Source of the DNA: Escherichia phage EC106
Sequence record: ON210138.1
DNA: 64,000 nucleotides
Reading direction: 5' to 3' (one strand)
Part shown: positions 2,700 to 14,015 of the stretch, in pieces
Layout of the letters: the number at the start of each line of letters is the position of its first letter
Numbering within the stretch: the first letter of the stretch is position 1
The notes under the pieces: model-generated
Database searches by the model: none
What the model was told of the DNA's origin: nothing
The model's input: the letters and a program-made list of their open reading frames with translations, nothing else
Program-made: the position numbers and the translations under genes

Positions 2700-3729
2700 T
2701 CATACAAGGCTCCCAATTATATTTCTTAAAAGTGAAATCGTCTTTCTTATTTCTTTCCTGATAAGCTAAGAAAAAGTGTTGCTGCATTAACTCTAAAGGT
2801 GTTCTGGTAATTGTTTGTCCATCCCACGAGACATAAGTGTATGACTCTTTCTTAGCGTAAAGCTCATAAATTGCATCAAGACACTCTTTGTAAGTGGTTT
2901 TACCTTCAAGGGCTTTCATTATAGTAGCCTTACCAACACCCTTTAAACCAAAATAATTATCCGCATTATCACCAGCCACAGCTTGGTAACAAAGGAATTT
3001 AAAACCTACCCCAACTGTCTTCTTAGCTTTTGGTGTCGATTTTATTGGGCAATCCCAAATTTCACCAACGTTGTTATCAGCAATGAAAATCAAAGGTGAC
3101 TTTTCATAGGTCATATCAATACAGTAAGTCCCTTCAGCTTGGCGAAGGTCTTTATCAATACTCATTAAGGCAGCCTTTTTTCCCATCTTTTCAGCTTTAG
3201 CAATAACGATAGAGTCAGCTTCAAATCCATCAAGAATCAATTTGAACTCTGGTCTTGACAGAAGATACTCACGACAAGCAACTAAGTGTGTTGGTGTGAC
3301 AGCATCTTTACGGTTACCTTGATATTGGTGCTCAAGACCTTTAATGTCTTTATGTTTATGCACACCTTTCTCTGTTAAATAACCTACCCAAGTTCTCTCT
3401 TTACCAACAACCTTAAGCCATTCCTGAAGCACCTGTTGAGTAGCCATGATAGCTTCTTTTTCACTCTTAGCTTCTTTCCAAGTCTGTCTTTCCCATTCAT
3501 CTTCATCAAATGTCAGGCCAAGTTCTTCCACAAGGATTCTCTGGTCTGCTAACCATCTTGCAGCATCTTTTGCATTATCAAATGGTTCAGATTCTTCTGC
3601 TGTGAGTTTATTGACGTATTTATATTTTGCTTTCTCAACTACACAAGCACCTTTATAGGCAATGCTGTCAGAGTCAATAAAAACATGTGTAACTGAATCG
3701 GGAAGTTTTGTTAATGTGTACTTCTCCAT
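2689..3729 (-). CDS. 5'-3' exonuclease / flap endonuclease (FEN, RNase H-like)
   Basis: 346 aa; N-terminal acidic cluster VFIDSDSIAYKGA and helix-3-turn-helix motif GDNADNYFGLKGVGKATIMKAL typical of T5 D15 / Pol I 5' nuclease family. Confidence 0.7.
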   Translation of the reverse strand: MEKYTLTKLPDSVTHVFIDSDSIAYKGACVVEKAKYKYVNKLTAEESEPFDNAKDAARWLADQRILVEELGLTFDEDEWERQTWKEAKSEKEAIMATQQVLQEWLKVVGKERTWVGYLTEKGVHKHKDIKGLEHQYQGNRKDAVTPTHLVACREYLLSRPEFKLILDGFEADSIVIAKAEKMGKKAALMSIDKDLRQAEGTYCIDMTYEKSPLIFIADNNVGEIWDCPIKSTPKAKKTVGVGFKFLCYQAVAGDNADNYFGLKGVGKATIMKALEGKTTYKECLDAIYELYAKKESYTYVSWDGQTITRTPLELMQQHFFLAYQERNKKDDFTFKKYNWEPCMNED

Positions 3730-8926: not shown

Positions 8927-9349
8927 TTATTTCTCTCTCAGTTGGTTAAGTTTCTTTCTAGAACATTTTAAGTTTTCGGATGAAGAAAAGTCAAGTGTCT
9001 TTTCAGAACGTGGATAGTAGTGCCTATCCCAAGAAGTTTCAACATCGTTAATCAGTGACGCTAGATTACACAGGTCTGTACCACTTTGCAACCTCTTTTT
9101 AAGAGAATCTAGTAAAGCAACTGTGTCTTTAGCTTTACGTCTCGCTGTAGCAACATCTTTCATATGCTCAAATACAGAGCATTTTAAGTCATCTTCATAG
9201 TTTTCAGACAACTCTATTTCATGTTGTATATCAACCATTCTCCTGTGATGGTGAGCATATTCCCGTTGAGCAGCAATGTCAAGTTCTTCCAACTTCTGCA
9301 AAGCTCTAACAAAGTCAGCTATGTCTGGGTGAACAAACATTTTCTGCAT
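8927..9349 (-). CDS. hypothetical protein
   Basis: 140 aa ORF, first gene of the leftward unit at the divergent region 9350-9600. Confidence 0.5.
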   Translation of the reverse strand: MQKMFVHPDIADFVRALQKLEELDIAAQREYAHHHRRMVDIQHEIELSENYEDDLKCSVFEHMKDVATARRKAKDTVALLDSLKKRLQSGTDLCNLASLINDVETSWDRHYYPRSEKTLDFSSSENLKCSRKKLNQLREK

Positions 9350-9520
9350 GTAAGCCTCTTTTAAGTAACTATTAAGTTTTAATCTTTTATCTTAACGTAT
9401 TCTATACGTTATACTTTAAAGCTTTTTAAAAGCTATTAAATAATCTTTTAAGAGTTTTAAAGTATCTGTATAGTTAAACTGTTAAGTAACCTTTTAAGTA
9501 AAAACCCACTTCGCAAAGAT

Positions 9521-9575
9521 TAACACCTTGTCAAGTACATTGTCAACTTGCTTTTTATAATTTTTTGCAGTAATG
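9521..9575 (+). promoter_or_regulatory. divergent promoter region with conserved CCTTGTCAAGTACATTGTCAAC motif and TATAAT box
   Basis: Motif ACACCTTGTCAAGTACATTGTCAAC followed by TATAAT; the same motif recurs at 50737 and 59045. Confidence 0.45.
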
Positions 9576-9606
9576 TATGAGGTTAATGATTTTAGAGGGA
9601 GTAAAA

Positions 9607-11748
9607 ATGGAAAACGTAGATTTTAAAAACTTACATTTGGTTGGTGATACAGAAACTGATGGTTTACTCCTTGAGTTCACTAAAGTGCACGTAATGGCCT
9701 TTGCAGACTATAAATCTGACGATGAAGAGCCACCTGTATGGGTCTTTACAGATGAGCCTATCCTCGGTCACAAGTACACCAAGTACATTAAGGGTGGTTT
9801 ACGTGAAGGTGTTGAGTTTGCGTTAAAGGCAAAACGACTTTGCATCCATAACGGTCTTGGTTATGACTGGTGGGTTTTTAATCACATTGCACCTGATTTA
9901 TGGAACTTTGATAATCCAAAGTGTAAGCCGTGGAGTAATTTCTTTCAGGATTCTCTTATCCAGTCTCGTGTTCAGTGGATGGATAGACCAACTCCAAAGG
10001 GTTATAAAGGTGCTCATGGCTTGGCTGCATGGGGTGCTCGTGTTGGTGTTCGTAAGCCAGAGATTGAGCATTGGGGTGTGTGGAATGCAGAAATCTTCAC
10101 TCGTGTTGTAGAAGATATTCGTATTAACGCCAAAACTAAACGGGCACTTGATAACGAGTATCTCAAGCTTAAGAAGTGTGGTATAGACACTTATGAAACC
10201 TACATGCGAGCTAAAGAAACATCTTTCTGGATGAGTCAACAGGCTATCAATGGTTGGAAAGCTGATAAAGAACTTATGGAGTTCCATGTAAAGGAACTTG
10301 ACAAGTTGACTAATGAGCTTGCTTCAGAGGTTGAACCACATCTACCTCCAACTATTAAGACCAAAGGTAAAGTCACTGGAGAAGAGTTTGCGAAAGCTTG
10401 GAATGAGTATGTTGAAACATTTGGTCATGCAGATGGACTGAAGAGAATTACCAAGTACCCTAAGACAAAGTATCGTCAGCAGGTACGTAATGGTGAGATG
10501 CAGACATACGAAATCAAACCATTTGGTAAGCCAACTACAAAGATTTTTAACATTGGAAAGAGAAATTGCTATACACCAACTAACTCCGTAACTGGTGAAG
10601 AGTACAAGGAAGGCTTTGTAGCAATGAAGGATGCTCGTGCAATTTGCAATGAGTTGAACGCAAAGATTGGTAAGAAATGCAAAGACTGGAAGCCAGTAAA
10701 AACAGTCAAAACTGTGAAGTACTATAACAGCCACGTTGTTAACCACTTTGAACTTGAGTCAAGTCGCTACACAGGTTTGATTGATGCACCATATACACCA
10801 ATTGAGTTTGAAGTTTCTCGTATGACTCAGGTAGCAGTTGTTAAAGATTACTTGAAATCAGTTGGTTGGATTCCAGATGACTGGAATTACAAGAAAGACT
10901 CAGATGGTCGCCCTGTCAAAGTTTGTCGTTTCAAAGACAATAAAAAGATGATTACAAAGCATCCTAAGTGGCAGGAAATGGTTGAGCGGTGTGGTTTGAG
11001 CTATGTTGAGCATGAAGGTGTACAGTACATTGAGCATAACTGGTCTGTGAAGAAGTACACAGATTTGCTTGAGCCTTGTTTAATCCGTACTTCACCAAAA
11101 CTTACTGAATCATCTTACGATACGATTGAAGGTGAACTTGGACAGAAGATTGCGAAGTACTATACTTTGATGCACCGACGCAGAACTATTGAGAACTCAA
11201 AGGACGACGAAAAAGGCTGGTTGAACCAGATTCGTCCAGATGGTCGCCTTAGTGCTGGTGCAATGGTGTTTGGTACTTCAACTGGACGTATGACGCAATA
11301 TGGTATTGTAAACGTACCGTCTGGTGCTGCTGTCTATGGAGCACCTATGAGGGAGGTGTGGATTTGTGAGGAAGGGACTAACGTTGTCTCTGTTGATATG
11401 AACTCAGCCCAGCTAGTTCTTCTTTGTAACTTTATGGGTGATAAAGAGTCCACTAAAGCGGTAACACAAGGTAAAGAAGAGGTTGAGTTCATTCGTCAAG
11501 AAGATGGACGCTATTACTGCAAACACTTTGATGAGTACCTCAACCCAGAGATTGATAAGTACCTTCGCTATGACTCTGAGAATGACCTGTACGTTGTCTA
11601 TTCAGGGACTGATGCACATACACTGAACAGTATCTACTTTAGCTTGAACGATGAGCAGGATATCTTGACTTGTCGAGCTACTCAGGATGAGAATCTTCTT
11701 CATGAGATTAGCAAAGGTCGTAAGAAAGCTAAGAATGGTATCTATGCG
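9607..11748 (+). CDS. DNA polymerase, family A, exon 1 (3'-5' exonuclease and most of polymerase domain)
   Basis: RBS GAGGGAG then ATG at 9607; Exo I motif VGDTETDGL; motif B start KAKNGIY near 11740; frame then runs into intron (in-frame stop at 11788). Exon end approximate (+/-15 nt). Confidence 0.8.
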
Positions 11749-12059
11749 TCAGTGGCGCATGTAAAACGTTGTGAATTGCTGGAAGCCTAAGTCTGTAAAG
11801 ATATGGTAATCAGCAGCGAAGTCTCTGTTAGGACTCCTAAAGCAAATAACATAACTATAGAGATTCCTAACAGAGAAACGTTCAGAGACTATCGAAAAGC
11901 ATACTTAATGTATGAACTGAGTAGAGTAGGGTGGTAAGCTAATGACCATTCCCAAGTGCAACGGTAGTATTACTACTACGTGATATAGTCCGACACTCCG
12001 TAGAAATGCGGAGAAGTTCATAAGAGAACTGGTACACCTTGCGAGTGTATTGACCAGAT
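11749..12059 (+). ncRNA. group I self-splicing intron (no internal ORF) interrupting the DNA polymerase gene
   Basis: Conserved group I core elements in order: P-like AATTGCTGGAAGCC (~11770), Q-like ATGGTAATCAGCAGCG (~11805), R GTTCAGAGACTA (11879-11890), S GATATAGTCCGAC (~11985); polymerase motif B is split across the interruption. Boundaries approximate. Confidence 0.75.
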
Positions 12060-12617
12060 GTATTGTTCGGTGCAGGTGATGAGAAGTTTGCTAAGACGAT
12101 TAAAGCTGCAACTACTCAGGAAGGTGCGCTGACTAAACAGACTTACTTTATACGTTTGCCTAAAATTAAGAAGCTGTTAGATGACTTGGAAGCTGACTAC
12201 AAAGCAACTAAAAAGGCACTTGAAGAGGTGTTTGGTAAGACTGCTGCAATCTCTAAAGGGGGTTTTGTAAAGGTTGCTGGAGCTTGGTTGTGGTGTAAAT
12301 CTCCACATAAGTTATTGAATTATTTGCTCATGGGTTCGGAAAGTCAGATTCAGAACGAGGCAATTAACCTTGCTTGCCGTCGTATGATTGACGAAGGTTT
12401 GATGAAGTTGAACGGTCGTAAACCAGCCATAGGTGCTCGTTTATTGTGCTCCTATCACGACGAGACAAGTTGGGAATGTCCAGAAAGTATGACGGCAGAG
12501 GTGAAGGCTGTCACTGATTGGTATTACGGACAAGCCTCTAAGAACTTAGGGCTAAAGAGTGAAACACTGGTAACTGGTACTGGTAAGGTTGGTAAAAGCT
12601 GGTATGAGGTACATTGA
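12060..12617 (+). CDS. DNA polymerase, family A, exon 2 (motif B end and motif C)
   Basis: Frame opens at 12054; LFGAGDEKFAKTI completes motif B (T7: YGAGDEKIG) and SYHDE is motif C; exon start approximate. Confidence 0.8.
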   Translation, partial: VLFGAGDEKFAKTIKAATTQEGALTKQTYFIRLPKIKKLLDDLEADYKATKKALEEVFGKTAAISKGGFVKVAGAWLWCKSPHKLLNYLLMGSESQIQNEAINLACRRMIDEGLMKLNGRKPAIGARLLCSYHDETSWECPESMTAEVKAVTDWYYGQASKNLGLKSETLVTGTGKVGKSWYEVH

Positions 12618-13129
12618 TGCGAGATTGTGGATTCACACATGAACAGTTAAAGTCTTGGTTAAACTATGACCCCGAAACAGGGGTCTTAACGTGGATTGGC
12701 AGACCTCCACATAGTAGTAGGGTGGTTATTGGGAGCCAAGCCGGAGCAATCAAGCGCACAAGGTCTGGTGTGTATATGCACACACAGATTTTAGGATACA
12801 GGACAGGCAATCACCGAATTGCTTGGTTCTGGATGACAGGTAAGTGGCCTGATAAACACATTGACCATAAAGATGGAGATGGTTTGAATAACGCTTGGGA
12901 CAATCTAAGAGAGGCCACAAAAGAGCAGAACATGTCCAATAGGAGACAACCTAGAACATCAAAAAACTTAAAAGGTACAAGTAGAAGCAAGTCTGGTAAG
13001 TGGATAGCCCAGATTAACCATAATGGCAAGACTATACATATAGGGACATACACAACAGAAGAAGAAGCCCATAAAGCTTACTGTGAAGCTGCTATTAAAC
13101 TCCACGGAGAGTTTGCAAAACTAAGTTGA
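12617..13129 (+). CDS. HNH homing endonuclease with AP2-type DNA-binding domain
   Basis: HNH core GNHRIAWFW...IDHKDGDGLNNAWDNLREATKEQN, C-terminal AP2-like KWIAQINHNGKTIHIGTYTTEEEAHKAY; starts at the stop of polymerase exon 2. Confidence 0.75.
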   Translation: MRDCGFTHEQLKSWLNYDPETGVLTWIGRPPHSSRVVIGSQAGAIKRTRSGVYMHTQILGYRTGNHRIAWFWMTGKWPDKHIDHKDGDGLNNAWDNLREATKEQNMSNRRQPRTSKNLKGTSRSKSGKWIAQINHNGKTIHIGTYTTEEEAHKAYCEAAIKLHGEFAKLS

Positions 13130-13180
13130 CAAGGTGCTCAGGGAAGAGTACCTTATACTATATCTTGTATAGGAGGGCTT

Positions 13181-13390
13181 ATGAGCCACCGTGGAAGAAC
13201 CCATGCAGCGATGATGAAAGGTGCTTCAAAGGAAACTATCAAGAACCGTAAGCAGAAGTTGTTTGAGAGAATGAACAGGCTAATTGACAATTCATCTCTT
13301 TCAGGTTCTGAGAAGGTTTTCTTGAAAGGTAATCTGAAAAGCATTGCACAAGAACTTATTGACATTGAGTATTGGAGACATCAAAAATGA
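13181..13390 (+). CDS. hypothetical protein
   Basis: 69 aa ORF. Confidence 0.4.
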   Translation: MSHRGRTHAAMMKGASKETIKNRKQKLFERMNRLIDNSSLSGSEKVFLKGNLKSIAQELIDIEYWRHQK

Positions 13391-13599
13391 CACTTGCAGA
13401 CGTTATTCAGCAACTTCACGACAATTGCTATACTCCAGAGTTGATTCAGGAGATGTCCATTGTAGTGATGCCTAGTAAGTTCGTAAGAGCTTTTAATGGT
13501 GACTCTTTAAGGGCTGCACATATCCTTATTGTTGACGGCAAGATTGCAAGAGACCGTACAGGAGTCCTTAAGGGCGAACGTATTAATATTGACCTCTGA
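13372..13599 (+). CDS. hypothetical protein
   Basis: 75 aa ORF. Confidence 0.4.
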   Translation: METSKMTLADVIQQLHDNCYTPELIQEMSIVVMPSKFVRAFNGDSLRAAHILIVDGKIARDRTGVLKGERINIDL

Positions 13600-13615
13600 G
13601 TATTGGTATACCAAA

Positions 13616-13771
13616 ATGAAACGCAAAGTAAAATTATTCAGTTTGTATGGAAGAGTCGGTAAAGGTTTTGATTGGCAACTGCTACGTTCAGATGTTAAAA
13701 GCAACGAGTTAGCACAGCTTATTATAAACTATCGACGAACGTACAGAGAGGTAGAGCATCGTGAACAGTAA
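13616..13771 (+). CDS. hypothetical protein (start trimmed to internal ATG)
   Basis: Track ORF 13529-13771 overlaps the upstream gene; ATG at 13616 (MKRKVKLF...) avoids overlap. Confidence 0.35.
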   Translation: MKRKVKLFSLYGRVGKGFDWQLLRSDVKSNELAQLIINYRRTYREVEHREQ

Positions 13772-14015
13772 AATTGAAAAGTCTGATGAAGTTATCAGAA
13801 GCAAAGATAAAGCTACAGCATTAGTAGCTGAAGCTTGGAGCAGGGGCTTGGACTACGAATGGTATCTTAGTATATGCCAAGGGCTATCAGTTTCCCCTGT
13901 ACAAAAAGAGATTTTTGATAAACTCTACGCAGTTTGTCAAGAGGGATACAATGAAGCCATGCTTCAAAACTGCATGAGTTTAATCAACCCAAAAGCATCT
14001 GATTTATTCTTTTGA
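13761..14015 (+). CDS. hypothetical protein
   Basis: 84 aa ORF. Confidence 0.4.
   Translation: MNSKIEKSDEVIRSKDKATALVAEAWSRGLDYEWYLSICQGLSVSPVQKEIFDKLYAVCQEGYNEAMLQNCMSLINPKASDLFF

Follow-up and report, generated by a model that had tools for sequence, protein, structure and literature searches.

A free-standing HNH-AP2 homing endonuclease gene and an ORF-less group I intron at the DNA polymerase locus of Escherichia phage EC106

Introduction

Proteins with an HNH nuclease domain and an AP2 domain are a recognised family of homing endonucleases, and their genes are often found beside DNA polymerase genes (PMC10448857). Here we describe such a gene at positions 12617-13129 of a 64,000-nucleotide stretch of Escherichia phage EC106 (ON210138.1), referred to below as the window, where it directly follows a family A DNA polymerase gene whose coding sequence is split by a group I intron that lacks an endonuclease open reading frame (ORF). 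Its product has the same architecture as the free-standing HNH-AP2 enzymes of phages and cyanobacteria, with an N-terminal HNH_3 and a C-terminal AP2 domain, and the gene occupies the same place after the polymerase gene as the annotated HNH genes of Felix O1-like phages, from which it does not differ materially. It is likely to be a free-standing homing endonuclease gene that homes to its own site, separately from the intron.

Several described systems couple an intron to a nuclease encoded elsewhere. In strict collaborative homing, the nuclease cuts the intronless allele at the intron site and the intron protects its own genome (PMC6083498, PMC2790892). The F-CphI/psbA intron system of cyanophage S-PM2 likewise consists of an ORF-less group I intron in an essential gene and a free-standing endonuclease gene downstream (PMC6083498). 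However, F-CphI, which has been shown to cut the intronless allele, is an endonuclease VII-motif (Endo VII-motif; DHHRN) enzyme, whereas the free-standing enzyme of the window is of the HNH-AP2 type. In addition, the Endo VII-motif enzyme among the relatives of the window is encoded by the intron's own ORF, and HNH carriers with an intact intronless insertion site are common among them.

A looser arrangement is known from phage T4, in which MobE is encoded by a free-standing HNH-family gene near an intron without a working endonuclease, the nrdB intron with its defunct I-TevIII; MobE acts away from the insertion site, and the intron is close enough to be co-converted (PMC2790892). The distance between intron and HNH gene in the window is also in this range. 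Trans homing in T4 was shown by phage crosses, whereas the case made here is one of population association only (51 of 51 records, see below). MobE itself is an HNH and zinc-finger protein and not an AP2 protein. I-HmuI of Bacillus phage SPO1 is also an HNH enzyme tied to an intron-bearing phage family A polymerase gene. In contrast to the free-standing enzyme of the window, I-HmuI is intron-encoded; it has no AP2 domain, and it nicks DNA whether or not the intron is present.

Taken alone, the HNH gene is routine: near-identical genes and arrangements are already annotated in relatives (e.g. phage NJ12), a selfish nuclease of this kind is annotated in dozens of Felix O1-like genomes, and the gene of the window is one more copy of what we call allele family A. 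Novelty is low, and what is of interest is the mosaic seen across the population, which can serve as a test bed. More than 250 genomes shuffle the intron, an Endo VII-type nuclease and four HNH-AP2 families in nearly all combinations, and Felix O1-like phages are a convenient natural system for asking how a nuclease-less intron persists, the candidate routes being hitch-hiking, nuclease turnover and the borrowing of another intron's nuclease.

The HNH-AP2 gene and its site

The allele A gene runs on the plus strand from an ATG at 12617-12619 to a TGA at 13127-13129 and encodes a protein of 170 residues. The HNH_3 nuclease domain (Pfam PF13392) spans residues 66-106 (12812-12934, plus strand; E=1.3e-14, 54 bits against a cut-off of 24.8, model positions 4-45 of 46) and contains ...IDHKDGDGLNNAWDNLREATKEQN..., whereas the AP2 DNA-binding domain (PF00847) spans residues 122-164 (12980-13108, plus strand; E=1.9e-9, 38.1 bits against a cut-off of 33.3). 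The catalytic His/Asn motif IDH...NN...NLREAT..QN was read by eye in the translation. Among solved structures, plant AP2/ERF domains (e.g. 7wq5, E=2.9e-8) match the AP2 part, and I-HmuI (PDB 1u3e, E=0.05) is a weak match to the HNH part. A tblastn search with the HNH protein returned no paralogue in the whole window.

The gene lies outside the intron, starting 557 bp 3' of it, in the space that separates the polymerase gene from the next one. Its ATG and the polymerase stop codon TGA (12615-12617) overlap by a single base, as can be read directly from the sequence, so that the sequence-only reading was right to place the endonuclease over the stop of the second polymerase exon and not inside the intron. 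A Shine-Dalgarno-like GAGG (12606-12609, plus strand) is found 7 nt upstream of the HNH ATG, within the last polymerase codons TAT GAG GTA CAT TGA. A scan of 11400-13500 gave no evidence of a separate HNH promoter, with five promoter-like sites against 4.2 expected, and no terminators in the same interval. The HNH stop codon falls within a TTGACA (13125-13130), for which the consensus promoter scan found no acceptable -10 partner and reported no promoter.

The window comes from a Felix O1-like myovirus of the genus Felixounavirus. Its 9000-14000 interval matches 263 phage records at 80-97% identity, nearly all of them felixounaviruses of Escherichia, Salmonella, Shigella and Citrobacter. Locus organisation was compared between the window and seven GenBank and 25 IMG/VR loci (32 in all, labelled L001 to L032 where they need to be told apart), and population counts were obtained from ~257 GenBank records with the polymerase region, using concatenated queries read by match span. 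These replaced a 1981-nt query with even sampling over the ranking, which made the mosaic visible while leaving the coverage classes ambiguous. Orthologues of the HNH gene in relatives are 92-98% identical at the nucleotide level and are annotated as homing or HNH endonucleases, and annotated counterparts after the polymerase gene include heid_90, WIV79033 of NJ12 and gp38 of Mushroom ('AP2/ERF domain').

In the locus comparison, the site between the polymerase stop and a conserved CAAGGTGCTCA is found in two states, either empty, with 10 nt (TTAGTATTGA), or filled with an HNH-AP2 insert, with 512-575 nt. The empty polymerase-end junction of the HNH-less phages EC6, JH2 and wV8 reads ...AGCTGGCTTGAAGTACACTAATTAGTATTGACAAGGTGCTCA..., and most empty-site polymerase genes end in CTT GAA GTA CAC TAA, whereas TAT GAG GTA CAT TGA goes with allele A. 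Four allele families are found at this one site, namely A (that of the window), B/E, C/F and D, and HNH_3 and AP2 domains were also detected in the tested representatives of B, C and D. The families share 30-50% protein identity over the first ~150 residues, in contrast to 88-96% over the last 24 residues (...TPEEAHKAYCEAAIKLHGEFAKLS), and the last polymerase codons come in a different version with each family. At the nucleotide level, the last 70 nt of the HNH ORF (13060-13129, plus strand, in the window) are 91-100% identical between families; the same stretch is found at 4524-4593 in L007, 4521-4590 in L018, 4471-4540 in L026, 3822-3891 in L030 (phage Tf) and 3793-3862 in L032 (REP11). We infer that this stretch probably serves as the right-hand recombination arm of a cassette, although it could alternatively be an element under constraint that overlaps this TTGACA in the stop region.

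Allele A is present in 49 of the ~257 records, sporadically and at a fixed site among close relatives, and its ORF is intact in all ten loci that carry it. The ratio of non-synonymous to synonymous substitution (dN/dS) relative to the window is 0.02-0.08, at dS values of up to 0.96, which indicates that purifying selection on allele A is strong. A fixed site that is either filled or empty, the cassette-like replacement of alleles and purifying selection are, in combination, characteristic of an active free-standing homing endonuclease gene, and the site between the polymerase stop and the next gene is a hot spot in Felix O1-like phages. The claim of the sequence-only reading that the gene encodes a free-standing HNH-AP2 homing endonuclease is therefore borne out by its domains, by its presence or absence at one site, by the divergent alleles and by purifying selection.

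A proposed homing cycle

We hypothesize that, during mixed infection, the HNH-AP2 enzyme would cut or nick genomes that lack an HNH gene. The target would likely lie at, or close to, the polymerase-end junction of empty sites, ...TGG CTT GAA GTA CAC TAA TTAGTATTGA/CAAGG... (the slash marks the end of the 10-nt empty site). In the enzyme's own genome, this target would be disrupted by the insertion and by the linked changes in the last polymerase codons. Repair from an HNH-carrying genome would then copy the gene into the recipient, with homology provided on the left by the 3' end of the polymerase gene and on the right by the conserved last 70 nt and the downstream sequence. Any help that the HNH gene gives to the intron would come through linked co-conversion and not through cleavage at the intron insertion site.

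Several points weigh against homing of the HNH gene at its own site and independently of the intron. The position proposed for the cleavage target is one that we infer, and no mapped cleavage site for an HNH-AP2 member of the Felixounavirus group was found in the literature. The polymerase-end polymorphisms are imperfectly linked to the HNH state, as locus L006 is empty and yet has TAT GAG. Some HNH homing enzymes, such as I-HmuI, are nickases that also nick their own DNA, and arguments from self-immunity, strong as they are, would not be decisive for a tolerated nickase of this kind. Finally, all 51 of the 51 ORF-less introns lie beside HNH genes, a pattern which suggests that HNH gene and intron are not fully independent.

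The polymerase gene and its group I intron

The first exon of the family A DNA polymerase gene was assigned to 9577-11749 (plus strand), its end being set by alignment to the intronless polymerase of phage heid; the listed exon 1 ORF continues into the intron, to 11790. It is followed by a 311-nt group I intron (11750-12060, plus strand; Rfam RF00028) with a covariance-model score of 62.9 bits against a gathering score of 50 (E=1.3e-14), and by exon 2 (12061-12617, plus strand, with the stop TGA at 12615-12617), which was identified by PF00476 (positions 218-381) and by alignment to heid. From the same comparison with heid, the upstream splice site follows U11749 and the downstream one G12060. 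Predicted splicing restores ...KNGIYALLFGAG..., with the residues KNGIYA/LLFGAG on either side of the junction, identical to intronless heid; we take the restored junction residues to be polymerase motif B. The predicted splicing has a U at the 5' splice site, a G at the 3' end of the intron and an in-frame ligation, as in group I introns, and the exon sequence AUGCGU could pair with intron GCGCAU as P1, with a U-G pair at the 5' splice site.

Neither the ORF list nor Pfam revealed an endonuclease domain within the intron of the window, Endonuclease_7 included. The only ORF in the intron has 44 codons (11803-11937, plus strand), is annotated as a hypothetical protein in NJ12, has no Pfam match and is most likely spurious. 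As this sole ORF lacks a family match, the intron is ORF-less in the relevant sense, in agreement with what had been read from the sequence alone. The 44-codon ORF was also considered as a remnant of a lost endonuclease and rejected, since it spans the deletion joint and the ribozyme core and has no family match.

Three forms of the intron occur among relatives, of ~800 nt (ORF-containing), 311 nt (that of the window) and 268 nt. The ~800-nt form has an ORF of 160 or 161 residues in the P6 loop, which in VSe11 matches Endonuclease_7 (PF02945, E=6e-20) and has the motif CxxC...DHDH...CxxC; Endo VII-motif intron ORFs are present in relatives such as VSe11, EC6 and Si3. The intron-encoded proteins of JH2, EC6 and FSL SP-010 have been placed in the F-CphI (DHHRN) endonuclease clade (PMC6083498). 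Positions 1-93 and 109-311 of the intron of the window align to the VSe11 intron sequence flanking its ORF segment, and at this place the window has only a short loop (11843-11857, plus strand; P6 extension by Rfam alignment), which replaces the ~510-nt endonuclease ORF segment of relatives. Since the intron has an Endo VII-motif endonuclease of its own in many relatives, the intron of the window is a deletion derivative that has lost the ORF. As a separate observation, the intron of locus L024 (2719-3498) has an Endo VII-motif ORF shortened to 101 residues, with the catalytic DHDH region lost, and lies next to an empty HNH site; to judge by this sequence, the intron endonuclease is decaying here, with no HNH gene next to it.

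Copies of the 311-nt intron in the window, Tf (L030) and Mushroom (L031) are 100% identical, and that of NJ12 (L001) is 99.4% identical, whereas the exon sequence beside it differs by up to 16% per 100 nt among these phages. The exons of the window are of the intronless heid/L005 type (~97-99% identical), and the only intron-adjacent differences from heid and L005 are at -2, -1, +2 and +3 (GCGU/UAUUG against GCAC/UGCUG). The nuclease-less 311-nt intron thus seems to have been transferred recently from one polymerase allele to another, taking only very short flanks along. On the predicted pairing, P1 and its U-G pair clearly require the -2 and -1 exon changes (GCAC to GCGU). The +2 and +3 changes were also considered, as a P10 requirement, and found by hand to be uninformative, as UAUUG and UGCUG can both pair with intron CAGUG.

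Between the intron and the HNH gene, exon 2 is a mosaic, with breakpoints at ~12400-12470 and shared tracts of only ~40-200 nt to the left of the HNH gene. For instance, the window and VSe11 have the HNH gene in common but, of the polymerase gene, no more than the last ~150-200 nt, and in L016 allele A is found beside a quite different polymerase end. The mosaic and the short shared tracts indicate that the intron and the HNH gene of the window do not have a single common history, and the HNH gene is independent in origin from the intron.

In most GenBank relatives, the intron-split polymerase gene is annotated as two DNA polymerase genes, in some with the 44-codon hypothetical protein between them, and none of the seven GenBank records examined has an intron annotation. 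The exact splice junction given here is of practical value for these genomes. The genome paper of Felix O1 (2010) states that introns are absent, and in our comparison Felix O1 itself has an intronless polymerase gene with an HNH gene at the polymerase-end site; the statement holds for Felix O1 and not for the genus. A literature search combining Felixounavirus with group I introns found nothing.

Distribution of intron and HNH gene

Among the ~257 GenBank records, 96 have the intron in any form, 49 have allele A and 23 have both. The corresponding two-by-two table (23 with both, 73 with the intron only, 26 with allele A only, 135 with neither) gives an odds ratio of 1.6 (Fisher p=0.14), and the intron and allele A are distributed almost independently. 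Allele A is found with an intronless polymerase gene in ~26 GenBank records, as well as in loci L002, L013, L016 and L025, and the other HNH alleles are found with an intronless polymerase gene in ~55 records, a figure extrapolated from a sample taken at even spacing. In heid, L016 and L025, the insertion site is GCACTGCTG, the same as in HNH-less genomes, and the surrounding intronless sequence (heid, wV8) reads ...GGTATCTATGCACTGCTGTTCGGT.... A comparison of 93 nt, made up of 43 nt upstream, seven variable bases and 43 nt downstream, found heid (HNH gene present, intronless) and L005 (HNH gene absent, intronless) to be identical at the insertion site. It follows that heid has no protective variant there.

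A different picture emerges when intron forms are separated and HNH-AP2 genes of all families are counted, using match spans in two ranked listings (counts uncorrected for shared ancestry). The 311-nt ORF-less intron is followed by an HNH-AP2 gene after the polymerase in all nine of its records and the 268-nt ORF-less intron in all 42, with an empty site in none. Among at least 35 records with the ORF-containing intron, 15 have an HNH-AP2 gene and at least 20 an empty site, and the ~161 intronless records divide into ~81 with the gene and ~80 without. The difference between ORF-less and ORF-containing introns has a Fisher p of 2e-10 at face value; the records are not independent, and we estimate that, when intron form, allele and exon haplotype are taken together, they represent only ~6-8 distinct combinations. 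The alleles beside ORF-less introns are A, B/E or C/F. No record with an ORF-less intron beside an empty site appeared in the ranked listings, though its rank would have sufficed, and among the 32 loci every combination of intron and HNH state was seen except this one.

Alternative explanations

The sequence-only reading had regarded the arrangement as compatible with collaborative homing. In its strict form, the HNH-AP2 enzyme would cleave intronless alleles at the insertion site, the intron would protect its carrier and both would spread jointly. The layout does resemble that of S-PM2, with an ORF-less intron and a nuclease gene directly after the interrupted gene (PMC6083498), the 51 of 51 ORF-less introns accompanied by an HNH gene agree with joint spread, and the very short flanks that moved with the intron are expected for a break at the insertion site. 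However, the ~26 allele A records and ~55 other-allele records that are intronless would represent genomes that cut themselves, and the insertion region of heid is the same as that of HNH-less L005 over all 93 nt. Furthermore, the intron is associated with allele A at a p of only 0.14 and owns an Endo VII-motif endonuclease in many relatives, and four families with 30-50% identity would all need one specificity, for a site 557 bp away. Strict collaborative homing is thus highly improbable, as the relatives that carry allele A without the intron, the first part of what the sequence-only reading had named as refuting its idea, count against it, whereas a looser link survives in the 51 of 51 ORF-less introns; as a whole, the earlier interpretation is partly supported. 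It has also to be considered whether the protein has ceased to be a homing enzyme, or does more than homing, as a domesticated nuclease or AP2 DNA-binding protein that, for instance, excludes co-infecting relatives or regulates neighbouring genes. Such domestication has been discussed for these nucleases (PMC10448857), a dN/dS of 0.02-0.08 means very strong purifying selection for a selfish gene, and the start of the gene overlaps the stop of an essential gene, so that translation may be coupled. Yet ongoing homing alone can maintain purifying selection, and the gene is missing from about half of its close relatives, which are otherwise ~95% identical, and is replaced by unrelated alleles at the same site, absence and replacement together being hallmarks of a dispensable mobile gene. 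We consider a domesticated function quite unlikely.

A functional link between the HNH gene and the intron could also be of a kind that is compatible with the preferred reading of a selfish gene homing to its own site, and would add to it. In a trans homing process of the MobE type, the HNH enzyme would cut near its own site and conversion tracts would sometimes span the 557 bp to the intron, such that an ORF-less intron is carried along and persists without a nuclease of its own. Alternatively, in a turnover of endonucleases, the incoming free-standing gene would have made the intronic endonuclease gene dispensable. Both variants would account for HNH genes beside 51 of 51 ORF-less introns, in at least three allele families, as opposed to 15 of at least 35 ORF-containing introns and about half of the intronless genes. 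A distance of 557 bp is within the T4 co-conversion range of up to ~2 kb (PMC2790892), turnover has been proposed as an idea (PMC10448857), and the 99.4-100% identity of the 311-nt intron in the window, NJ12, Tf and Mushroom despite differing exons suggests recent spread. However, the records are non-independent and perhaps amount to 6-8 lineages, and two losses of the ORF in HNH-bearing genomes followed by tight linkage could yield the same pattern. The exon 2 mosaic speaks against long co-conversion tracts, the four exon differences directly beside the intron are unlike a tract started 557 bp away, and in L024 the shortened intron ORF (101 residues) lies beside an empty site. A link by trans homing or turnover is possible, though we lean against it. 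The broader proposal that free-standing HNH-AP2 genes keep an endonuclease-less intron alive and moving in Felix O1-like phages is tentative and, in our view, rather unlikely. If true, these phages would offer a natural example of endonuclease turnover or of trans homing in which all intermediate states survive among sequenced genomes (an intron that has a nuclease of its own; such an intron together with an HNH gene; an ORF-less intron together with an HNH gene; an HNH gene alone; neither of them), and the lack of ORF-less introns beside empty sites would reflect selection and not ancestry.

Further variation at the locus

Exon patches flanking the ORF-containing or 268-nt introns have only 71-82% identity over ~370 nt upstream and ~320 nt downstream. 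This was seen when 11477-11749 and 12061-12377 of the window were compared with L003, L004 and L032, the rest of the gene being 92-100% identical. The divergent patches look like flanking sequence co-converted from a more distant donor. The intronless alleles of L007 and L008 have GCGTTGCTG and GCGTTACTG, respectively, at the insertion site (locus position ~3496-3503), bases that are nearer to the intron-type GCGT/TATTG than to the common intronless GCACTGCTG, and these sequences may be footprints of intron loss.

The small gene directly 3' of the HNH site (13181-13390 and downstream) is itself variable. Only the first 55 and the last 44 nt of the interval 13130-13430 of the window are conserved in L003, L005, L007, L009, L017 and others, which have a different small ORF between these two conserved ends.

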